From Dromaius novaehollandiae (taxonomy: Eukaryota): DNA of 64,000 nt. Positions within the stretch are counted from its first letter, which is position 1. Each line of letters begins with the position of its first letter. The DNA lies in NCBI RefSeq assembly GCF_036370855.1, contig NC_088128.1, positions 356,899 to 420,898 of the forward strand, read 5' to 3'. The translations under genes were made by a program, and so were the position numbers. A model generated the notes under the pieces. It saw nothing but the letters and a program-made list of their open reading frames with translations. It ran no database searches and was not told where the DNA came from. Positions 8,844-60,560 of this stretch are shown here, piece after piece.

Positions 8844-9063
8844 GCATTGGCTGGCGGGCGCCTACCCGGCCTTCGCGGTGCCCTACTTCGTCTACGACGT
8901 CTACGCCATGTTCCTCTGCCACTGGCACCGGGGCCGCGTCAAGGGCCACGAGGCCGGGCCACCGCCCTCGCTGCGGGCCGCCGCCGCCGCCTACCTCCGC
9001 AAGGACCTGCTCATGGTGCTCCACCACGCCGCCATGGTGCTCGTCTGCTTCCCCGTGGCCGCC
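8844..9063 (+). CDS. TLCD3B: TLCD3-family coding exon 3 (TLC domain core): (Q)HWLAGAYPAFAVPYFVYDVYAMFLCHWHRGRVKGHEAGPPPSLRAAAAAYLRKDLLMVLHHAAMVLVCFPVAA
   Basis: Acceptor cgcgcag|G at 8842-8843. Donor GCC|gtgagt at 9064. Conserved TLC-domain motifs are present (YDxYAM, HW, LxxHHAxxL). Confidence 0.8.
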
Positions 9064-10790
9064 GTGAGTGGGGACGGGGCGCGGGGACACGTTGGGGACG
9101 TGGGAACGGCTTGGGGACATGGGGACGTCTTGGGGACGTGGGATGGGGGGCCACCACCATGGGGGAGAGGTTCTCATGGTGGCTGCCATGGTTCCCGTTG
9201 GCCATCATGAGTGGGGACAGGGCTTGGGGACACCTTGGGGACATGGGGACATCTTGGGGACGTGGGATGGGGGGCCACCACCTTGGCGGAGATGTTCCCG
9301 TGGTGGCCGCCATGGTGGTTGTCTACTTCTCTTTGGCCACTATGAGTGGGGACAGGGCTTGGGGACACCTTGGGGACATGGAAATGGCCTGGGGACATTT
9401 GGAACATCTTGGGGACGTGGGATGGGGGGCCACCACCATGGGGGAGATGTTCTCGTGGGGGCCGCCATGGTGCTCATCTGCTTCCCTGTGGCCGCCGTGA
9501 GTGGGGACGGGGCTTGGGGACACGTTGGGGACGTGGGAACGGCTTGGGGACATGGGGACGTCTTGGGGACGTGGGATGGGGGGCCACCACCATGACGGAG
9601 ATGTTCTCGTGGGGGCCGCCATGGTGGTTGTCTACTTCTCTTTGGCCATCATGAGTGGGGACAGGGCTTGGGGACACCTTGGGGACGTGGAAACGGCTTG
9701 GGGACATGGGGACGTCTTGGGGACGTGGGATGGGGGGCCACCACCATGGGGGAGAGGTTCTCGTGGTGGCCGCCATGGTGCTCGTCTGCTTCCCCGTGGC
9801 TGCCGTGAGTGGGGACGGGGCTTGGGGACACGTTGGGGACGTGGAAGTGGCTTGGGGACATTGGGAACGTCTTGGGGACGTGGGATGGGGGGCCACCACC
9901 ATGGGGGAGAGGTTCTCATGGTGGCCGCCATGGTTCTCCTTTGGCCACTATGAGTGGGGACAGGGCTTGGGGACACCTTGGGGACATGGGGACGTCTTGG
10001 GGACGTGGGATGGGGGGCCACCACCTTGGCGGGGAGGTTCTCGTGGTGGCCACCATGGTGGTTGTCTACTTCTCTTTGGCCATCATGAGTGGGGACAGGG
10101 CTTGGGGACATCTTGGGGACGTGGAAATGGCTTGGGGACATTGGAACGTCTTGGGGACATGGGATGGGGGCCACCACCTTGGCCGGGAGGTTCTCATGGT
10201 GGCCGCCATGGTGCTCATCTGCTTCCCCGTGGCCGCCGTGAGTGGGGACGGGGCGCGGGGACACGTTGGGGACATGGAAACAGCCTGGGGACATGGGGAC
10301 GTCTTGGGGACACCAAGATGGCTCAGGGGTGGAGGAACGTCTTGGGGACGTGGGATGGGGGGCCACCACCATGGGGGAGATGTTCCCATGGTGGCTGCCA
10401 TGGTTCTCCTTTGGCCACTATGAGTGGGGACGGGGCTTGGGGACACCTTGGGGACATGGAAACGGCTTGGGGACATGGGGATGTCTTGGTGACATGGGAT
10501 GGGGGGCCACCACCATGGGGGAGAGGTTCTCATGGTGGCCGCCATGGTGGTTGTCTACGTCTCTTTGGCTGCCGTGAGTGGGGACGGGGCTTGGGGACAC
10601 CTTGGGGACATGGAAATGGCTTGGGGACATGGGGACGTCTTGGGGACATGGGATGGGGGGCCACCACCATGGCGGAGATGTTCCCATGGTGGCCACCACG
10701 GTTCCCCTTGGCCACCACGAGTGGGGACAGGGATCGGGGCCACCGTGGGGGTTGGGGCCCCCCCGGGTTGGCCCCCCCGGGCCCTCGTGT
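9064..10790. repeat. Array with about 140-bp unit and about 425-bp higher-order repeat in TLCD3B intron 3. Each higher-order copy contains a copy of the last 40 or so nt of exon 3 plus its GTGAGT donor.
   Basis: 'gccgccatggtgctcatctgcttcccYgtggcYgccgtgagtggggacgggg' at 9455-9500, 9765-9812 and 10197-10245. Degenerate copies (ATGAGT) at 9215, 9340, 9645 and 10075. Confidence 0.85.
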
Positions 10791-10832: not shown

Positions 10833-10928
10833 CTGTGGCGCCAGGGCAAGGGCGACTTCTTCCTGGGCTGCCTGCTCATGGCGGAGCTCAGCACCCCCTT
10901 CGTCTGCCTCGGCAAGGTGCTCGTCCTG
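10833..10928 (+). CDS. TLCD3B: TLCD3-family coding exon 4: LWRQGKGDFFLGCLLMAELSTPFVCLGKVLVL
   Basis: Acceptor ccccag|CTG at 10831-10832. Donor CTG|gtgagc at 10929. Phase 0 to 0. Conserved 'GDFFxGC...AELSTPFVxLG' motif. Confidence 0.8.
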
Positions 10929-10929
10929 G

Positions 10930-11960
10930 TGAGCCGGACGCCGGGGCCCCTCGGGGGCGGGGCCGGGACGCCGGGGCCCCTCGGGGGGACGGGAGGGCCC
11001 CCGGACGCCTGGGTCCCTCGGGAGGACGTGGGTGGGGTGGGAGGAACCTGGGACGCCTGGGCCCCTCGGGAGGACGTAGGGGTGAATTGGGGCCCCCACC
11101 CACCCGGACACCTGGGCCCCCGGACGCCTGGGCCCCTCGGGAGGACGTAGGGGTGAATTGGGGTCCCCGGACGCCTGGGCCCTTCGGGAGGACGTAGGGG
11201 TGAACCAAGGCCCCCACCCACCCGGACACCTGGGCCCCTGGGTGCTTGGACACTTGGGCCCCCCACGCTGTTGGCCGCCCGGACGCCTGGGCCCCTGCAC
11301 ACTTGGGTCCCCGGACACCTGGGCCCCCGCTCTCTTGGCCACCCGGACACCTGGGCCCCTTGGGAGGCCATAGGGGTGAACCAGGGCCCCTGGACACCTG
11401 GGTGCCCGGACGCCTGGGCCCCTGCATGCTTGGGTCCCCGGACACCTGGGCCCCTTGGGAGGTCATAGGGGTGAACCAGGGCCCCCGGACGCCTGGGCGC
11501 CCGGACGCCTGGGTCCCCGGACACCTGGGCCCCTTGGGAGAACATACGGGTGAACCAGGGCCCCTGGAACCTTGGGTCCCCGGACGCCTGGGCCCCTGGG
11601 TGCTTGGACACTTGGGCCCTCTCTCTCTTGGCCACCTGCTCCCCCGGAACCTGGGGTGCCCGGACGCCTGGGCCCCCCGCGCCGTTGCCTGCCCGGACAC
11701 CTGGGCCCCTTGGGAGGCCAGAGGGGTGAATCAGGGCCCCCGGACACCTGGGCCCCCGGACACCTGGGCCCCTTGGGAGGTCATAGGGGTGAACCAGGGC
11801 CCCTGGAACCTTGGGTGCCCGGACACCTGGGCCCCTGGGTGCTTGGACACTTGGGCTCCCTCTCTCTTGGCCACCTGCTCCCCCGGAACCTGGGGTGCCC
11901 GGACGCCTGGGCCCCCCGCGCCGTTGCCCGCCCGGACGCCTGGGCCCTCCCCCCCTCCCC
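10930..11960. repeat. About 60-bp minisatellite (CCGGACGCCTGGGCCCCTCGGGAGGACGTAGGGGTGAATTGGGGCCCC) in TLCD3B intron 4
   Basis: Direct reading. It shares the 'cggacgcctgggccc' core with the 7900-8800 array. Confidence 0.9.
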
Positions 11961-11971
11961 GCCCCGGCTAA

Positions 11972-12256
<285 letters not shown>

Positions 12257-12289
12257 CGGCGGGGGGGGGCGGGGGGCACCCTTGGGTGC

Positions 12290-13300
12290 GGGGGGTGGTG
12301 TCCTGGGAGCATCCTTGGGTGGCCCCAAGATGGCGGTTGCGGCGTAGGAGCACCCTTGGGTGGCCTCAAGATGGTGGCCATCGCCTAGAAGCGCTTTTGG
12401 GTGCTTTCAGGGTGGTGGCCATCTTCTAGGAGCACCCTTGGGTGTTCTCAAGATGGTGGTTGTGTCCTAGGAGCTCTTTTGGATGTTCTCAAGATGGTGG
12501 CCATCTCCTGGGAGCACTCTTGGGTGTCCCCAAGATGGCGGCCATCTCCTAGGAGCGCTCTTGGGTGTCTTCAAGATGGCGACCATCTCCTACAAGCACT
12601 TTTGGATGTTCTCAAGATGGTGGTCATGTCCTGGGAGCACCCTTGGGTGGCCTCAAGGTGATGGCCATCGCCTAGAAGCACTTTTGGATGTTCTCAAGAT
12701 GGTGGCCATGTCCTAGGAGCACCTTTGGGTGCTTTCAGGGTGCTGGCCATCTTCTAGGAGCGCCCTTGGGTGTCCTCAAGATGGTGGTCATCTTCTGGGA
12801 GCACCCTTGGGTGTCCTCAAGATGGCGGTTGTGTCATAGGAGCACGCTTGGGTGTTCTCAAGATGGTGGCCATCACCTAGAAGCGCTTTTGGGTGTCCTC
12901 AAGATGGTGGTCATCTTCTGGGAGCACTCTTGGGTGTCCCCAAGATGGTGGTCATGTCTTAGGAGCACCCTTGGGTGTTCTCAAAATGGCGGTTGTGTCG
13001 TAGGAGCACCCTTGGGTGGCCTCAAGATGGTGGCCATCTCCTGGGAGCACCTTTGGGTATTCTCAAGATAGTGGTCATCTTCTGGGAGCACCCTTGGGTG
13101 TCCTCAAGATGGTGGCTATCTCTTAGAAGCACTTTTAGATGTTTTCAAGATGGTGGCCATGTCCTGGGAGCACCCTTGGGTGTTGGGGGGCGTGGTGGGT
13201 GTCTCTTGGGAGCACCCTTGGGTGTCCCCAAGGTGGTGGCCATCTCCTAGAAGCACTTTTGGATGTTCTCAAGATGGTGGCCATGTCCTAGGAGCGCCCT
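12290..13300. repeat. 41-bp minisatellite of about 24 copies, each carrying a YY1-like AAGATGG(C/T)GGCCATC motif, in the TLCD3B 3' UTR
   Basis: Unit 'ctaggagcacccttgggtgttctcaagatggtggccatctc'. Exact AAGATGGCGGCC at about 12530 and 12330. Confidence 0.85.
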
Positions 13301-13475
13301 TGGGTGTCACCAGCCCCCCCCGGGTGCCCCCAGCGTCCCCAGGACCGTAGCAGCACCCAGGGGTGCCCTCGGGGTGGGGCCCCGGGCCAGTAGCAGCCCC
13401 CCGGGGACGCCTGGGCCCCCTGGGGACGCCTGGGCCCCCCCCGGGGCGGCGCCGCGCAGCAGCAATAACCTCAGT

Positions 13476-13481
13476 ATTAAA
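13476..13481 (+). terminator. TLCD3B: Candidate poly(A) signal ATTAAA for TLCD3B (3' UTR about 1.2 kb)
   Basis: This is the only AATAAA or ATTAAA hexamer on the + strand between the TLCD3B stop (12256) and the convergent MVP 3' end. It sits in a short AT-containing island (cagtattaaaggagcc). Confidence 0.3.
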
Positions 13482-13539
13482 GGAGCCTTCGGGAGCCCCC
13501 GGCCCCGCCTCCTGCTTGGGGCCCAGGCGTCCGGGCCCC

Positions 13540-14170
13540 CGCGCCGCCCCCGCGACCCCCCCCACCCAGTGACATCACGGCCCAACCTGGTGACATCACG
13601 CCCCCGCCAGGTGACATCACACCCCTTGCGCCGCCCCTGATATTGCGCCCCAGCCCGATGACATCACACCCCCAGCCCAGTGACGTCACGCCCCGGCCTG
13701 GTGACATCACTCCCTCACTTTGTGACATTGCGGCCCAGCCCGGTGATGTCACGCCCCCTGCGCCACCCCCTGACATCATGGCCCAGCCCGGTGACATCAT
13801 CATTCCCCCCCCCAGCGCTGCCTTGTGACATCACAGCTCCTGCCCCCTCCAGCCCTATGACATCACAGCCCCTGACGCCCAGCTCTTGTGACCTCACAGG
13901 CCCCAACACCCCCAGGGCTATGACATCACAGCCCAGGCCCCCCCCCGCCAGCCCAATGACATCACACCCAAGCGTCCCCCCCCGCGACCTCATTGGTCCC
14001 TACGCTCCCCCAGCCATGACATCATACTCAAGAACCCCCCCCGCTGTGACCTCACAGGCCCCAACACCCCCCAAGGGGTTATGACGTCACAGCTGCCCGC
14101 ACCCCACCTTAATGACATCACAGCACCCCCATGACATCATCACCCCCCTGCTGACATCACCGCCATGACA
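13540..14170. repeat. About 33-bp minisatellite of about 19 copies built on CRE-like TGACATCA(C) / TGACGTCA motifs, between the convergent TLCD3B and MVP 3' ends
   Basis: gtgacatcac repeated. Canonical palindromic CRE gtgacgtcac at 13680 and 14083. Confidence 0.85.
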
Positions 14171-14191
14171 TCACTGCTGCTGAAAGCCGCC

Positions 14192-14197
14192 TTTATT
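14192..14197 (-). terminator. MVP: MVP poly(A) signal AATAAA (TTTATT on the + strand), about 77 nt after the stop
   Basis: The + strand reads gccgcctttattggcg, which is AATAAA on the minus strand. It is followed by a GT-rich stretch. Confidence 0.6.
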
Positions 14198-14273
14198 GGC
14201 GCGTGGAGTGCAGGGGGCGGAGCCCGAGGGTGGAGGGCGGAGCCCGGGGGTGGGGGGGGCGTGTCCCGGGCGC

Positions 14274-14405
14274 TCAGGGGGCGGGGCTGGGCGCAGGGGG
14301 CGGGGCCAGGCCCAGCAGCCCCCGGGCGGTGGCGAAGAGGTTGAGGGGGGCGGCGCCGTCGGTGATGAGCGTCGACTGCAGCCCCAGGCCCTGCAGCAGC
14401 TTCAC
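14274..14405 (-). CDS. MVP: Major vault protein, terminal coding exon (c16): [43 protein letters not shown]
   Basis: Read on the minus strand: acceptor gggcgcag|GTGAAG, stop TGA at complement(14274..14276). Matches the human MVP C-terminus '[33 protein letters not shown]'. Confidence 0.85.
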
Positions 14406-15289: not shown

Positions 15290-16150
15290 GACTGCGCCTG
15301 CGCGCGCCCCCCCTTCCCCCACCACAGCCAGTGCGCATGCGCGTTCTCCTCCTCGGCCCCCCCCCCGCACTCCCGCCGCGGCTACCGCGCCTGCGCGCTC
15401 TCCTTCCACCCCCCCCCCACAAGGCTGCCGCGCCTGCGCTCTCTCCCCAACCCCCCCCCCCCGCCGCCGAGGCTACTGCGCCTGCGCGCTCCCTTTCTTC
15501 CCCCCCCCCGCGGCTACCGCGCCTGCGCGCTCTCCTTCCACCCCCCCCCACAAGGCTGCCGCGCCTGCGCTCTCTCCCCAACCCCCCCCCCCGCCGCCGA
15601 GGCTACTGCGCCTGCGCGCTCCCTTTCTTCCCCCCCCCCGCGGCTACCGCGCCTGCGCGCTCTCCTTCCACCCCCCCCACAAGGCTGCCGCGCCTGCGCT
15701 CTCTCCCCAACCCCCCCCCGCCGCGGCTACTGCGCCTGCGCGCTCCCTTTCTTTCCCCCCCCCCGCGGCTACCGCGCCTGCGCGCTCCCTTCTCCCCTCA
15801 CAACCCCCCCCGCGGCTACTGCGCATGCGCGCTCCCCTTCTCCCCCCTCCCGCCTCGGCTACTGTGCTTGTACGTCCCCCCCCCCCCGCCGCGGCTACTG
15901 CGCCTGCGCGCTCCCCTTCTCCCCCCCCCCCCCCCCCGGCCGCGGCTACCGCCCCTGCGCGCTCTCCCTTCGACTCCCCCCCCCCCCGCGCCGCGGCTAC
16001 CGCGCATGCGCGCTCCTCTTCCACCCCCCCCCCGGCTGGGTCTACTGCGCATGCGCGCTCCCCCTTCTCTCCCCTCCCCGCCGCGGCTACTGCGCATGCG
16101 CCCTCTTCCCCCCCCCCCCCCCGCGGCTACTGCGCCTGCGCCAGACATCC
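15290..16150. repeat. About 47-60-bp minisatellite in an MVP intron carrying NRF1-type GCGCATGCGC / GCGCCTGCGC palindromes
   Basis: 'cgcggctactgcgcatgcgcgctcc' at 15826, 16000, 16046 and 16093. ctgcgcctgcgcgctc variants throughout. Confidence 0.85.
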
Positions 16151-16209
16151 CGCCCTCAAGCCCCAGCCCCGCCCCCCGCGGCCCGGCCCCGCCACGCCCC
16201 GCCACGCAC

Positions 16210-16336
16210 CGCCTCGATGGCGGCGGCCTCGGCCTTGAGCTTGGCCTGCAAGATGGCGGCCTCGCCCTCGATGCGGGCGGCCTCGGCCCGCGCCTCCGCC
16301 TCAGCCCGCGCCGCCCCCGCGCTCTCCACCGCCGCG
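16210..16336 (-). CDS. MVP: MVP coding exon c14: (S)[42 protein letters not shown]
   Basis: Acceptor ccctgcag|C. Donor GCG|gtgcgt. Matches human '[45 protein letters not shown]'. Confidence 0.85.
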
Positions 16337-16699
16337 CTGCAGGGGGGGAAGGGGCGGGGTCACCGCGGGACACGCCCACCCCTGCCGCGCCCGGCCACGC
16401 CCACCTCGGGGGGGGCCCTCCCGCCCGCCAGGCCACGCCCCCCGTGCCAAGTCCCCTCTGCCCTGCCCTGGGGGGAAGCCACGCCCCCCGAGCTCCGGCC
16501 ACGCCCCCAGCCAAGTCACGCCCCCCCGGCGACAGATGTTCCCTGCCGGGCAAGCCACGCCCCCCCCGGGGCTCTGGCCACTCCCTCTGCCAAGCCACGC
16601 CCCCAGCGCTCTGGCCACGCCCCCTGCCATGCCCCCTGCCACGCCACGCCCTGACCACCTGCCTCCCCTCAGGCCACGCCCCCACGCCAAGCCACTCCC

Positions 16700-24649: not shown

Positions 24650-27600
24650 TGGGGACGTCGCCAAGGTCTCCGTCACCGTCACCGTCATCACCGTGGCCAC
24701 CATGGCCACCAACCCGGCCACCGCCACGGCCCCCGCGGCCCCCGGATCCCCGCCAACCTCGAGGTGGACCCCCATCCCGGACGTCCTCAACGTCTCCAAC
24801 ATCCCTGATGTCCCCAACGTCCCCAATGGTCTCCAAGTCGCCCATCCCCGATGTCCCCAACACCCCCAACATTCCTCATATCTTCAATGTCCCCAATGTC
24901 CCCCGGATCCCTGCTATCCTCGAGGTGGACCCCCATCCCTGACATCCTCAACATCTCTGATGACCCCAATGTCCCCCATGTCTTCAATGGCCCCAACACC
25001 AACGTTCCTGATGGCCGTGACATCACCAATGTGCTCAATGTCCCCAATGTCCCCCAGATCCCCACCAACCTCGAGGTGGACCCCCATCCCGGACGTCCTC
25101 GACGTCTCCAACATCCCTGATGTCCCCAACGTCCCCAATGGTCTCCATGTTGCCCATCCCCGATGTCCCCAACACCCCCAACATTCCTCATATCTTCAAT
25201 GTCCCCAGTGTCCCCCGGATCCCTGCTATCCCCGAGGTGGCCCCCCATCCCTGACGTCCTCGACATCTCCAACATCCCTGATGTCCCCAACGTCCCCAAT
25301 GGTCTCCATGTTGACCATCCCCGATGTCCCCAACACCCCCAACATTCCTCATATCTTCAGTGTCCCCAATGTCCCCCGGATCCCCGCCAACCTCGAGGTG
25401 GACCCCCATCCCGGACATCCTCGACATCTCCAACATCCCTGATGTCCCCAACGTCCCCAATGGTCTCCATGTTGACCATCCCCAATGTCCCCAACACCCC
25501 CAACATCCCTGATGTCTTCAGTGTCCCCAGTGTCCCCCGGATCCCTGCTATCCTCGAGGTGGACCCCCATCCCGGACGTCCTCGACATCTCCAACATCCC
25601 TGATGTCCCCAACGTCCCCAATGGTCTCCATGTTGACCATCCCCGATGTCCCCAACACCCCCAACATTCCTCATATCTTCAATGTCCCCAATGTCCCCCG
25701 GATCCCTGCTATCCTCGAGGTGGACCCCCATCCCGGACATCCTCGATGTCTCCAACATCCCTGATGTCCCCCATGTCCCCAATGTCGCCCATCCCTGATG
25801 TCCCCAACACCCCCAACATCCCTGATGTCTTCAGTGTCCCCAATGTCCCCCGGATCCCTGCTATCCTCGAGGTGGACCCCCATCCCGGACGTCCTCGATG
25901 TCTCCAACATCCCTGATGTCCCCAAAGTCCTCAATGTCGCCCATCCCCGATGTCCCCAACACCCCCAACATCCCTGATGTCTTCAGTGTCCCCAATGTCC
26001 CCCGGATCCCTGCTATCCTCGAGGTGGACCTCCATCCCTGACATCCTCAACATCTCTGATGACCCCAATGTCCCCCATGTCTTCAATGGCCCCAACACCA
26101 ACGTTCCTGATGGCTGTGACATCACCAATGTGCTCAATGTCCCCAACGTCCCCCAGATCCCCACCAACCTCGAGGTGGACCCCCATCCCGGACGTCCTCG
26201 ACGTCTCCAACATCCCTGATGTCCCCAACGTCCCCAATGGTCTCCATGTTGACCATCCCCGATGTCCCCAACACCCCCAACATTCCTCATATCTTCAGTG
26301 TCCCCAATGTCCCCCGGATCCCTGCTATCCTCGAGGTGGACCCCATCCCTGACGTCCTCGACATCTCCAACATCCCTGATGTCTCCCATGTCCCCGATGT
26401 CCCCAACACCAATGTTCCTGATGGCCCCGACGTCACCAATGTGCTCTATGTCCCCAATGTCCCCCGGATCCCCGCCATCCCCGAGGTGGCCCCCAATCCC
26501 TGATGTCCTCAACACCTGTGACATCTCTGATGTCCCCCATGTCTCCCATGTCCCCCATGTCCCCAACACCAATGTTCCTGATGGCCCCGACATCACCAAC
26601 ATGCTCTATGTCCCCAATGTCCCCCAGGTCCCTGCCATCCCCGATGAAGCACCCCATCCCCGATGTCCCTGATGTCCCCAACCCCCCCGATGTCCCCAAC
26701 ATCCCCGGCGCCTCACCGGGCCTCAACACCTCCAACATCCCTGATGACCCTGATGCCCTCGATGTCCCCAATGTCCCCCACGTCTCCGCCATCCCCGAGG
26801 TGGCTCCCCATCCCCGACGTCCCCAATGTCCCCAACCCCCTCCATGTCCCCAACGTCCCTGGTGCCTCACTGGGCCTCAACACCCCTGACATCCCCGATG
26901 TCCCCGATGCCCTCAATGTCCCCAATGTCCCCCAGATCCCCACCATCCCTGAGGTGGCCCCCCATCCCCGACGTCCCCCCCGATGTCCCCAACGCTCCCA
27001 ACGTCCCCACTGTCCCTGGCGCCTCACCGGGCCTCAACAGCCCCGACATCTCCGATGTCCCTGACGCCCTCAATCTCCCCAATGTCCCCCAGGTCCCCGC
27101 CGTCCCCGAGGTGGCCCCCCATCCCTGCCATCCCCGCTGTCCCCAACATCCCCGCTGTCCCCAGCACCTCCCTGGGCCTCAACACCCCCGACATCCCCGA
27201 TGTCCCCAATGTCTCCGATGTCCCCCAGCTCCCTGCCATCCCCGAGGTGGCCCGCCATCCCCGATGTCCCCAACCCCCCCGATGTCCCCAATGTCCCCGG
27301 CGCCTCACCAGGCCTCAACACCTCCAACATCCCCGATGTCCCCGATGCCCCCAATGTCCCCCACGTCCCCACCGTCCCCGAGGTGGCCCCCCATCCCCAA
27401 CGTCCCCGCTGTCCCCCCCGCTGCCCCCAATGTCCCCGGTGCCTCACCGGGCCTCACCGGGCCTCAACACCCCCGACATCCCCAATGTCCCTGATGCCCT
27501 CAATGTCCCCGATGTCCCCCACGTCCCTGCCATCCCCGAGGTGGCTCCCCATCCCCGATGTCCCCGATGTCCCCAACCCCCCGATGTCCCCAACGTCCCC

Positions 27601-57525: not shown

Positions 57526-57589
57526 GTGAGGCGGGGGCACCCATGGGTGCTGCGCGGCGGGGGGTGCCACCACCCACCCTTTCTTTCCC

Positions 57590-59040
57590 ACCCAAATCTG
57601 GGTGTTTTTGCCTCAGGGTGACGCCCAGCGGGTGCCACCTCCCCGTCAGCCATTTTGTCCTCCTCAAATCTGGGTGTTTTCACCTCAGGTTGACGCCCAG
57701 TGGGTGCTGCCACCCATCACCCTTCGTTTCCCACCCAAATCTGGATATTTTTGCTTCAGGGTGCCACCCAGCGGGTGCCACCGCCCCATCAGCCATTTTG
57801 TCCCCTCAAAGCTGGGTGTTTTTACCTCAGGGTGACGCCCAGCGGGTGCCACCACCCCGTCAGCCATTTTGTTTCGCTCAAATCTGGGTGTTTTCACTTC
57901 AGGGTGACGCCCAGTGGGTGTTACCACCCCATCAGCCATTTTGTCTCCTCAGATCTGAGTGTTTTTGTCTCAGGGTGACACCCAGTTGGTGCCACCACCC
58001 TGTCAGCCATTTTGTCCCCCTTAAATCTGGGTGTTTTTACCTCAGGACGACACCCAGTGGGTGCTGCCACCCATCACCCTTCGTTTCCCCCCAAATCCAG
58101 GCTGTTTTCACCTCAGAGTGACACCCAGTGGGTGCCACCACCCTGTCAGCCATTTTGTCCCCCCAAATCTGTGCTTTTTCCACCCCGTCAGCCATTTTGT
58201 CCCCCTCAAATCTAGGTGTTTTCATCTCAGGGTGACACCCAGTGGGTGCTGCCACCCATCACCCTTCGTTTCCCATTTGAATCTGGGTGTTTTCACCTCA
58301 GGGTGACGCCCAGCGGGTGCCACCACCCTGTCAGCCATTTTGTCCCCCTCAAATCTGGGTGTTTTTACCTCAGGGTGACACCCAGCAGGTGCCACCACCC
58401 CATCAGCCATTTTGTCCCCCCAACCCGCACGTTTTCCACCCCGTCGGCCATTTTGTCCCCCCAAATCTGTGCGTTTTCCACCCTATCGGCCATTTTGTCC
58501 CCCAAACCCACACGTTTTCCACCCCGTCGGCCATTTTGTCCCCCAAACCTGTGTGTTTTCACCCCATCAGCCATTTTGTCCCCCAAACCCACACGTTTTC
58601 CACCCTGTCAGCCATTTTGTCCCCCAAATCCGTGCTTTTTCCACCCTGTCGGCCATTTTGTCCCCCAAACCTGCGCATTTTCCACCCCGTCGGCCATTTT
58701 GTCCCCCAAACCTGCGCATTTTCCACCCCGTCAGCCATTTTGTCCCCCCAACCCGCACGTTTTCCACCCCGTTGGCCATTTTGTCCCCCAAACCCACATG
58801 TTTTCCACCCTGTCAGCCATTGTGTCCCCCCAAACCCGTGCGTTTCTGCCCCGGGTGACCCCACAGCAGGTGCCACCATCTTGTCAGCCATTTTGTCCCC
58901 CAAATCCGTGCTTTTTCCACCCTGTCAACCATTTTGTCCCCCCAACCCGTGCGTTTTCCACCCCATCAGCCATTTGTCCCCCCAACCCACACGTTTTCCA
59001 CCCTGTCGGCCATTTTGTCCCCCAAACCCGCGCGTTCCCA
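57590..59040. repeat. About 59/118-bp minisatellite in KIF22 intron 4. Units carry CAGCCATTTTGTCC (YY1-like core) and acceptor-like TGTTTTTACCTCAG|GGTGAC.
   Basis: Direct reading. About 12 copies of 'atctgggtgtttt(t/c)acctcagggtgacgcccag'. Later copies read 'ccgtcggccattttgtcccccaaacc'. Confidence 0.9.
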
Positions 59041-59072
59041 CCCCGGCTGACCCCGTCCCCCACCCCGCGCAG

Positions 59073-59688
59073 CTCGTGGACCTGTTCGCCCCGCCGGGCC
59101 CCCCGCTACGCCTCCGCGACACCTCCCCGCCGGCGGTGCCGGGCTTGACCGAGGTGCCCGTGCGCGACGCCGCCGCCTTCGAGCGCCTCTTCGTCCCCGC
59201 CGCCCGCCGCCGCCGCCGCGCCGCCGCCACCCGCCTCAACGCCGCCTCCAGCCGGGGCCACGCGTTGCTGCTGCTCCGCCTGCGCCCCCCCGGCGTCACC
59301 TTGCTGCTGGGGGACCTGGCGGGCGCCGAGGACAACCGGCGCACGGGCAACGCCGGCCGGCGCCGCCTGCGCGAGAGCGGTGCCATCAACGCCTCCCTGG
59401 GGGCCTTGCGGCGGGTGGTGGCCGCCCTGGCGCGGGGTGACGGCCGCCGGCGGCGTCACCCGGTGCCGTACCGCGACAGTAAGTTGACGCGGGCGCTGCG
59501 CGACGCCCTGGGCGGCTCGGCCCGCGCTCTGCTGCTGGCCGCCGTGGCGCCGGGGCCCCGCGAGGCCGCCGCCGCTCGCGCCGCCCTCGACTTTGCCGCC
59601 GCTGCCGCCGGCGTCGTCAACCGCGACGTGGTGGTGGCTGCACCGCCGGAGCCACCGTCGGAGCCGGAGCCGGGTGACGGGGAGCAGG
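59073..59688 (+). CDS. KIF22: KIF22 large coding exon (switch I/II and neck): LVDLFAPPGPPLRLRDTSPPAVPGLTEVPVRDAAAFERLFVPAARRRRRAAATRLNAASSRGHALLLLRLRPPGVTLLLGDLAGAEDNRRTGNAGRRRLRESGAINASLGALRRVVAALARGDGRRRRHPVPYRDSKLTRALRDALGGSARALLLAAVAPGPREAAAARAALDFAAAAAGVVNRDVVVAAPPEPPSEPEPGDGEQ
   Basis: Acceptor ccgcgcag|CTC at 59071-59072. Kinesin signatures are present: SSRGH (SSRSH), DLAGAE (DLAGSE), VPYRDSKLTR. The first in-frame-compatible donor is CAGG|gtgagg at 59689. The same donor sequence is repeated about 14 times in the downstream array, so the 3' boundary could be a later copy. Confidence 0.75.
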
Positions 59689-59689
59689 G

Positions 59690-60560
59690 TGAGGCCAAAC
59701 GGGGACGTTGGGTGACGTTGGGGGACGTTGGGGGACATTGGGGACCACAGTGAGGCCAAGGGGGGGCGTTGGGGACCAGGGTGAGGTCACCGGGGGGACG
59801 TTGGGGGATGTTGGGGACAAGGGTGAGGCCAAGGGGAGACGTTGGGGACCAGGGTGAGGCCAAGGGGAGACGTTGGGGACCATGGTGAGGCCAAGTGGGG
59901 ACATTGGGGGACATTGAGGACAGGGATGAGGCCAAGGGGGGACGTTGCGGGACATTGGGGACAAGGATGAGGCCACCAGGAGGATGTTGGGGGACATTGG
60001 GGACCAGGGTGAGGCCAAGGGGAGGACATTGGGGACCACAGTGAGGCCAAGGGGAGACGCTGGGGACCAGGGTGAGGCCGAGCGGGGACATTGGGGGACG
60101 TTGGGGACCACAGTGAGGCCAAGGGGAGACGCTGGGGACCAGGGTGAGGCCAAGGGGGGACGTTGGAGACCAGGGGACATTGGGGACCAGGGTGAGGCCA
60201 CTGGGGAGACATTGGGAGATGTTGGGAGACATTGGGCGATGTTGGGGACAAGGATGAGGCGGGGGGGACACGTTGGGGGACATTGGGGACCAGGGTGAGG
60301 CCAAGGGGGATGTTGGGGACCAGGGTGAGGTCACCAGGGGGATGTTTGGAGATGTTGGGGGACGTTGGGGGACATTGGGGACCAGGATGAGGCCAAGCGA
60401 GGACATTGGGAGATGTTGGGGGACGTTGGGGACCGGGGTGAGGCCAAAGGGGGACATTGGGGACCCGGTGAGGACAGGGGGGCGCCGGGGACCTGTGGGG
60501 GTGACAAGGAGGGACATTGGGGACATGGGGGGACACTGGGGACACAGAGGGGACACTGGG
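59690..60560. repeat. About 60-bp minisatellite directly abutting KIF22 exon 5. It contains about 14 copies of that exon's donor context CCAGG|GTGAGGCCAAGG.
   Basis: Exon end 'ggagcagggtgaggccaaacgggg' versus repeats 'ggaccagggtgaggccaaggggagacgttgg'. Confidence 0.85.

Follow-up and report, generated by a model that had tools for sequence, protein, structure and literature searches.

Clustered YY1 sites have been described at imprinting control regions, including Peg3-DMR, Nespas, and Xist/Tsix (Kim et al. 2006, cited in PMC2665242). As far as that account portrays them, these mammalian clusters consist of many motifs in the same orientation within ~1 kb, are located in transcribed regions, lie in CpG islands, retain the CpG of the CGCCATnTT motif, and are conserved across species, with poorly conserved sequence around them (PMC2665242). 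A YY1-type motif is also found in each unit of DXZ4, an X-linked tandem array associated with YY1 and CTCF, whose units are 3-kb CpG islands present in 12-100 copies and bound by CTCF on the inactive X (PMC3287207). In olfactory receptor coding regions (PMC2791781) and in the promoter monomers of mouse L1 Tf (PMC11602158), YY1 motifs are repeated because the sequence that carries them is itself repeated or otherwise constrained; the L1 Tf monomers are units of about 200 bp at the 5′ end of the element and have YY1-dependent activity. At the level of the protein, all vertebrates share the same YY1 zinc fingers; methylation blocks binding to the CpG form of the motif, and changing the CpG to TpG/CpA "somewhat reduced" binding in gel shifts yet allowed it (PMC1904287).

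Tandem repeats of a similar unit length are known from bird micro- and dot chromosomes, among them the CNM and PO41 families of Galliformes. Such minisatellites are GC-rich, have head-to-tail units of ~41 bp with a higher-order period, lie in mostly repetitive non-coding surroundings, and are transcribed within longer transcripts. For the CNM unit, dyad symmetry has been reported (PMC9974502). Repeats of the PO41/CNM type give rise to non-coding RNA transcripts on lampbrush chromosomes and in somatic cells, and PO41, with a GC content of 63%, is reported to be concentrated in the gene-rich, non-heterochromatic portion of a chicken dot chromosome.

A 41-bp tandem array in the putative TLCD3B 3′ UTR

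The window (the whole stretch of DNA analysed, 64 kb in length) contains the following features around the array, with coordinates given as window positions.

9001-9066 and 10833-10931: additional TLCD3B exons (tblastn)
11993..12256, plus strand: last coding exon of TLCD3B (FAM57B), with a TGA stop at 12254-12256 (translation, homologs, tblastn)
12257..12298, plus strand: G-run segment separating the stop codon from the array (sequence reading)
12299..13308, plus strand: 41-bp tandem array with consensus TCTCCTAGGAGCACCCTTGGGTGTCCTCAAGATGGTGGCCA (TRF, unit table, column profile)
13476..13525, plus strand: candidate TLCD3B poly(A) signal ATTAAA at 13476-13481 and a conserved downstream block ending in CTTGGGG (hexamer scan, four-bird alignment)
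14192..14197, minus strand: AATAAA, the likely MVP poly(A) signal and the sole minus-strand AATAAA nearby
16181-16329, minus strand: MVP coding sequence as read by translation, in an exon given as 16142-16562
59205-59750 (about 59.2-59.8 kb), plus strand: kinesin exon, KIF22-like

The open reading frame of the last TLCD3B exon specifies the C-terminal portion of a protein with a TLC domain (Pfam PF03798), and its top homologs are bird proteins or fragments named ceramide synthase-like or FAM57B-like, with 85-88% identity. The ATTAAA at 13476 is the sole canonical plus-strand poly(A) hexamer between the TLCD3B stop and 14.8 kb. Both the stop codon (12256) and the candidate poly(A) signal (13476) named in a preliminary description of this DNA were confirmed. 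On the minus strand, MVP exons can be followed from about 46 kb to 16.2 kb, and a search with the concatenated exons confirmed the identity of this gene. With the TLCD3B stop and poly(A) signal on the plus strand and the MVP AATAAA on the minus strand, the two genes are convergent, and their 3′ ends lie about 0.7 kb apart. The array falls between the TLCD3B stop and the sole hexamer, whose surrounding block recurs in other birds, and this comparative evidence is good support for its placement inside the TLCD3B 3′ UTR, as the same description had proposed. The G-rich start that follows the stop codon has a similar counterpart in pheasant and goose, as judged by reading the sequences.

Tandem Repeats Finder (TRF) identified 24.6 copies of the unit with 75% matches and zero indels, recovering the 41-bp period previously placed at 12290-13300. 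A 123-bp period was scored over the same interval with 80% matches, indicating a weak higher-order period, and the identity between units varied weakly with lag, consistent with faint higher-order structure. When laid out in register, the units held phase across 22 copies, with a mean pairwise identity of 79%. A 17-mer derived from the unit had 19 matches at up to three mismatches as compared to 0.28 expected; since these matches are copies of one unit and not independent events, they show that the repeat is real and not that the motif has been selected. The array has the features by which minisatellites (VNTRs) are defined, namely many diverged, head-to-tail copies of a unit of 10-100 bp, here 41 bp × 24.6 in register and differing mostly by transitions. 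A coding reading of the array, suggested by a 127-aa open reading frame, was rejected because most units contain TAG or TGA, whichever strand is read. A protein search with this frame, used as a proxy for the repeat in eukaryotic assemblies, yielded zero matches.

YY1-like sites in the array

The preliminary description had counted about 24 YY1-like sites in the array and had given the content of the unit as AAGATGG(C/T)GGCCATC. This longer word was found five times, but the exact sequence quoted, AAGATGGCGGCCATC, occurs only once, and one additional copy of AAAATGGCG is present. The shorter AAGATGG[CT]G occurs 17 times, with the CG form in 4 of the 17. The consensus motif of the array is AAGATGGTGGCCA, with TpG in place of the CpG, and the unit consensus contains CTCAAGATGGTGGCCA, with TG and not CG; in the critical column of the motif, 18 units have T and 5 have C. 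The best-preserved sites are as follows.

12532..12546, plus strand: sole exact copy of AAGATGGCGGCCATC (motif count)
12327, 12573, 12819, and 12983, read on the minus strand: start positions of the perfect CGCCATnTT cores besides that at 12532 (motif scan)

To count as a YY1 cluster under a definition published by the Kim laboratory (PMC2665242), a 500-bp span must hold three or more matches to cgCCATntt, in which at most one of the lower-case bases may differ. The array contains 20 YY1-like sites under this definition, five of them without a mismatch and fifteen with one; 18 share the same orientation and up to 12 fall within a 500-bp span. The count of about 24 is therefore overstated, holding only under a relaxed definition, and canonical sites number about five. 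Thirteen of the 15 mismatched sites lack the GCCAT core and read CACCAT, and the CpG of the motif is kept in 5 of the 20. Judged by its motifs, the array is YY1-like, with three quarters of its sites in the weaker form that cannot sense methylation. Because TpG variants still bind YY1 in gel shifts, more weakly, motif-level potential for YY1 binding remains.

These numbers raise the question of whether the array works as a docking platform for YY1, in which ~20 sites of shared orientation between the convergent TLCD3B and MVP genes would serve as an enhancer, silencer, looping anchor, or boundary, with the TpG sites making YY1 binding independent of methylation. The density of sites, up to 12 per 500 bp as compared to the three required (PMC2665242), speaks for such a platform, as does the binding of TpG/CpA variants in electrophoretic mobility shift assays, and the invariance of the zinc fingers means that bird YY1 should read the same motif (PMC1904287). 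The motif block is also the most conserved part of the unit: the 11 columns of CAAGATGGYGG score 0.937 as compared to 0.833 for the rest, although we estimate that about half of this excess is owed to the few cytosines in the block, C>T being the dominant change. The quality of the sites points the other way, with 15 of 20 mismatched, 13 of these as CACCAT, and so does their origin as copies of one event. Considered together with the CpG content, the orthologous arrays, and the surrounding repeats discussed below, a docking function appears very improbable. A full-text literature search with the unit sequence returned only unrelated papers that share the 13-mer CAAGATGGTGGCC, and longer fragments specific to the unit were unmatched.

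CpG depletion of the array

The array has a GC content of 0.557 and a CpG observed/expected ratio (o/e) of 0.22, which is a local minimum as compared to about 0.52 in the flanks and 0.83 in the coding exon. No CpG-island context was found for the array, which further weighs against a YY1 docking platform. Substitutions relative to the consensus showed a strong strand asymmetry, with 57 C>T and 17 G>A changes on the sense strand. The ..GGTTG and ..GGCCA subtypes of the unit each include CG and TG forms of the motif, a pattern that fits repeated decay of CG to TG. We read this composition as the probable outcome of repeated CpG decay in germline-methylated, transcribed DNA, and it is, as far as base composition can tell, the reverse of what a protected CpG island with differential methylation would show.

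Arrays at the same position in other birds

The window was compared with DNA carrying TLCD3B homologs from blue jay (Cyanocitta, L001), the manakins Manacus (L002) and Neopelma (L007), swan goose (Anser, L003), a tyrant flycatcher (Myiozetetes, L004), pheasant (Phasianus, L006), and Logan contig L005 (SRR18112698). At the nucleotide level, the exon is most similar to that of goose (91% identity), with 86% identity to pheasant. A tandem array was present in each of the six named birds, beginning no more than about 100-300 bp from the TLCD3B stop. The unit lengths are 21/42 bp in passerines (e.g. TCTATGGGGCACCCTGGGGTG), 41/42/52 bp in goose, and 24 bp in pheasant, as compared to 41 bp in the window. 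Wherever the contig is long enough (jay, manakins, goose, and flycatcher), the sole AATAAA or ATTAAA of the region directly follows the array. An alignment of the window, jay, manakin, and goose places this hexamer in a conserved block, A[T/A]TAAAGGA..CTT..GCCTCnTnCTTGGGG, of which A.TAAAG, CTT, and G.CTC.T.CTTGGGG are invariant. Across these birds, the segment between the TLCD3B stop and the poly(A) signal is evidently filled by a tandem array whose unit differs by lineage, and on this phylogenetic sampling an array has been present in the predicted 3′ UTR since before the split of Galloanserae and Neoaves.

The YY1-like cluster does not share this distribution. Orthologous arrays were scanned in six other birds, none of which is a close relative of the window species, and the cluster was absent from them; they hold only scattered sites, none in jay, Manacus, flycatcher, or Neopelma, one in goose, and two weak ones in pheasant, as compared to 20 in the window. 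With counts of 0, 0, 1, 0, 0, and 2 in the other arrays, the cluster is specific to the lineage of the window, at least among the birds compared, and its absence from orthologous positions is a further point against a docking function.

What is conserved among the birds is thus the position of the array, and homology of the units themselves is suggested only tentatively. In a search with a profile of the 41-bp unit (nhmmer), the best matches outside the window were in the 3′ UTR arrays of manakin and goose, at E values of about 0.01, and other arrays in the window gave comparably weak matches. By eye, goose TCTTCAGGGAGCACCCTGAGGTCC-ATAAGGGGGTCC aligns with TCTTCTAGGAGCACCCTTGGGTGTCC-TCAAGATGGTGG, placing AAGATGG opposite AAGGGGG. 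The TLCD3B homolog at 700-1094 of contig L005 has no G-rich array after its stop and is followed instead by repeats of the GGCCACGCCCC type, which suggests that only birds may carry the 3′ UTR array.

Secondary structure and strand asymmetry

The unit contains two partial dyads, GGAGCACCC-TT-GGGTGTCC and AAGATGG-NGG-CCATCT(T/C). The AAGATGG-NGG-CCATCT dyad forms at least five of seven Watson-Crick pairs in 15 of 24 units and all seven in none. A 287-nt piece of the array folds at z = −4.8 relative to shuffles, although a strong fold is expected of any tandem repeat that contains a palindrome, even without selection. An Rfam scan of 11900-14300 returned only one match, to a plant miRNA family at 28 bits as compared to a threshold of 150 bits, which we consider noise. 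A role as a miRNA sponge was rejected by eye, as UCAAGAUGGUGGC pairs with positions 4-11 of miR-29 and there is no match to the seed, UGGUGCU.

The TLCD3B 3′ UTRs of the seven birds each contain 1.15-2.0 kb of tandem repeat, are all G+T-rich on the sense strand, with GC skews of +0.13 to +0.93 and negative AT skews, and are CpG-poor except for the truncated pheasant fragment. The window has the weakest skew and 3 G-quadruplex (G4) motifs in its 3′ UTR, as compared to 21-32 in passerines.

The array might instead act through RNA or transcription, its likeness to YY1 sites being irrelevant, either as a hairpin-forming G/T-rich repeat that affects mRNA stability or localisation, or as a module for R-loop- or pause-dependent termination before MVP. 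The repeat content and shared skew of all seven 3′ UTRs fit this account, as do the short distance between the TLCD3B and MVP 3′ ends, the two dyads per unit, and the fold of the 287-nt piece, and the excess of C>T over G>A changes is what exposure of the non-template strand during germline transcription would produce. Against it, arrays of either skew fill introns and intergenic DNA throughout the window, so that the presence of an array is the default, and the species in question has the weakest skew and far fewer G4 motifs than the passerines. The array also lies upstream of the poly(A) signal, and pause or R-loop terminators usually lie downstream, while the fold is expected in any case and there is no Rfam match. 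We regard an RNA- or termination-based role as unlikely.

A related view is that the notable feature may not be the YY1 motif at all, but the position-conserved, G/T-rich repeat of 1-2 kb, which stops at the conserved poly(A) block a short way before a convergent gene and whose persistence would be selected while its unit drifts. Such a repeat might form an R-loop, G4, or hairpin module and, in this lineage, perhaps also a methylation-independent platform for YY1. We give this broader possibility a small chance.

Repeat content of the surrounding DNA

The window has a GC content of 0.68, and 82% of its bases fall in TRF arrays, 63% in strong ones. It contains 138 non-redundant arrays, whose distinct units add up to 11.3 kb, and 41 bp is the commonest strong period. 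Random sequence of the same composition holds 0.315 YY1-like sites per kb, so about 3.6 repeat units with such a site are expected by chance in 11.3 kb of unit sequence. Among the 23 strongest arrays, three have a YY1-like site in their consensus as compared to 0.68 expected, a mild excess of motif-bearing arrays that is not decisive. At least three other arrays carry CCAT-type motifs, and the relevant sites elsewhere in the window are as follows.

9234-10702: array in a TLCD3B intron with the CCAT-type motif CGCCATGGT
16250-16260, minus strand: sole other exact AAGATGGCGGC in the window, within MVP coding sequence (AAILQ)
24739-26706: array with the CCAT-type motif CTCCATGTT
57586-59045: array with AGCCATTTT and 21 YY1-like sites

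The occurrence of AAGATGGCGGC within MVP coding sequence indicates that the motif arises incidentally in GC-rich DNA. The part of the last array at 58395-59045 is as dense in sites as the 3′ UTR array and has better cores (AGCCATTTT), which suggests that clusters of this kind are common by-products in this DNA and again tells against a specific docking function at TLCD3B.

Four arrays in the window have a 41-bp period (starting at 12299, 32962, 47662, and 58395), and the latter three are not detectably similar to the unit in the 3′ UTR. Periods of 154-161 bp are shared by many of the other arrays (e.g. those at 9234, 24739, and 40471). The recurrence of both lengths suggests that units spanning about 4 or about 15 helical turns are preferred in the region.

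A period of exactly 41 bp also brings to mind a local cluster of a genome-wide bird satellite family of the PO41/CNM type. The window resembles bird dot-chromosome DNA in its GC content and its 82% of tandem arrays, the kind of region in which PO41 is enriched, and the unit has dyad symmetry, as does that of CNM. The unit is unlike those of the three other 41-bp arrays in the window, however, and the protein search with the array frame found no relatives. The GC content of the array is 56% and not 63%, and it is 1 kb of repeat within a single 3′ UTR, inside a gene, and not a long subtelomeric or centromeric block. As exon identity to pheasant is only 86%, the host probably lies outside the Galliformes, for which PO41 was defined. 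Membership in such a family would, by these analogies, be extremely unlikely, more so than any of the other alternatives considered here.

Comparison with imprinted loci and DXZ4

The array had also been likened to the differentially methylated regions (DMRs) of imprinted loci and to X-linked macrosatellites. It shares with the clustered YY1 sites of imprinting control regions the many same-orientation motifs within ~1 kb, the location in a transcribed region, and the poor conservation of the surrounding sequence. Unlike those clusters, as far as they are described in PMC2665242, it is not a CpG island (o/e 0.22), keeps the motif CpG in 5 of 20 sites, has no counterpart in six other birds, and resides in a bird. 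With DXZ4 it has in common a tandem arrangement with a YY1-type motif per unit, but a kilobase-scale CpG-island unit of the DXZ4 kind was looked for and not found, as the unit is 41 bp long and CpG-poor. A CTCF co-site was considered and rejected by eye; GCCACCATCTTG matches only the first 7 bases of the CTCF core and lacks the invariant AG..GG. DXZ4 is in addition X-linked and tied to the inactive X, whereas allele-specific expression in chicken gives no support for Z inactivation (PMC5381566), and chicken studies have found neither imprinting nor Z inactivation (PMC3973300, PMC5607270, PMC4498732, PMC5381566). The TLCD3B matches and the conserved poly(A) block place the host among birds, outside the mammals in which the imprinting-type clusters occur. 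The proposed kinship with DMR arrays and DXZ4 fails because the CpG island, the motif CpG (lost in three quarters of the copies), the conservation of the cluster, and the host lineage all fail to match.

A parallel may be found in the olfactory receptor clusters and L1 Tf monomers, in which, as here, the motif is repeated along with its carrier. The L1 Tf monomers differ from the array, which lies at a 3′ end and presents no evidence of promoter function.

Origin of the array

The account that we consider probable is that the array is not a control element of the imprinting type but an ordinary, ageing minisatellite that evolves fast, has a G/T-rich sense strand, and occupies almost all of the TLCD3B 3′ UTR. 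Its turnover would have proceeded by replication slippage and unequal exchange. A unit variant with AAGATGGCGGCC could have arisen by point changes in something like the AAGGGGGTCC or GGAGTGGCTG segment of goose and jay, and would then have been amplified together with the unit. As the motif was amplified with its unit, the roughly 20 YY1-like sites would represent one mutational event that was copied, and not 20 selected sites. The array would subsequently have aged, leaving copies that are about 79% alike and differ mostly by transitions, with most CpGs changed to TpG as in germline-methylated gene-body DNA. As DNA, such an array probably has no YY1-dependent switch function, and as RNA it may simply be carried in the TLCD3B 3′ UTR. 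Points against the minisatellite account are the persistence of an array in both Galloanserae and Neoaves, which could reflect function, the high conservation of the CAAGATGGYGG block, the mild excess of motif-bearing arrays, and the residual binding of YY1 to TpG sites.

If the minisatellite account holds, it carries a caution for bird dot-chromosome DNA, where any word resembling a transcription factor site is multiplied by the repeat unit that carries it and comes to mimic a group of sites. A group of this kind should be scored as a single event, and read as regulatory only after a check that its CpGs are retained and that other species share it. The long-standing array in the TLCD3B 3′ UTR also offers a small natural test of whether it is the repeat character or the repeat sequence that is conserved in a 3′ UTR.

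Neighbouring repeats

Several other repeats in the window are of interest in their own right. The ~0.7-kb gap between the TLCD3B and MVP poly(A) signals is filled at 13560-14170 by tandem repeats of ~21 bp, GGTGACATCACGCCCC, with a CRE/ATF-like core (TGACGTCA) that has mostly decayed to TGACATCA; one intact TGACGTCAC remains near 13681. Goose carries TGATGTCACCGCCCCGA repeats at the equivalent relative position (13609-13695 of L003), so this array also appears to be conserved in position. On the far side of the MVP poly(A) signal, 15372-16141 holds 130/42-bp repeats with a CpG o/e of about 1.0 and a GC content of about 0.8. These repeats contain GCGCCTGCGCGC, which we take to be an NRF1-like palindrome. 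They adjoin the MVP coding exon at 16142-16562, which is expected to belong to the 3′ part of MVP, an odd site for a CpG-island-like stretch.

At 57586-59045, just upstream of the KIF22-like exon, a 71-bp array passes gradually into one with a 41-bp unit (16 copies, CCACCCCGTCAGCCATTTTGTCCCCCAAACCCGCGCGTTTT); its 21 sites keep the GCCAT core, with a motif quality at least equal to that of the array at 12299-13308. The array at 9234-10702 in the TLCD3B intron has a 154-bp unit that contains GGCCGCCATGGTGG and TGGCCACCATGAG, and it has the word ATGGTGGCC and a GTTCTCA lead-in in common with the 3′ UTR unit, pointing to a possible relationship between the two.
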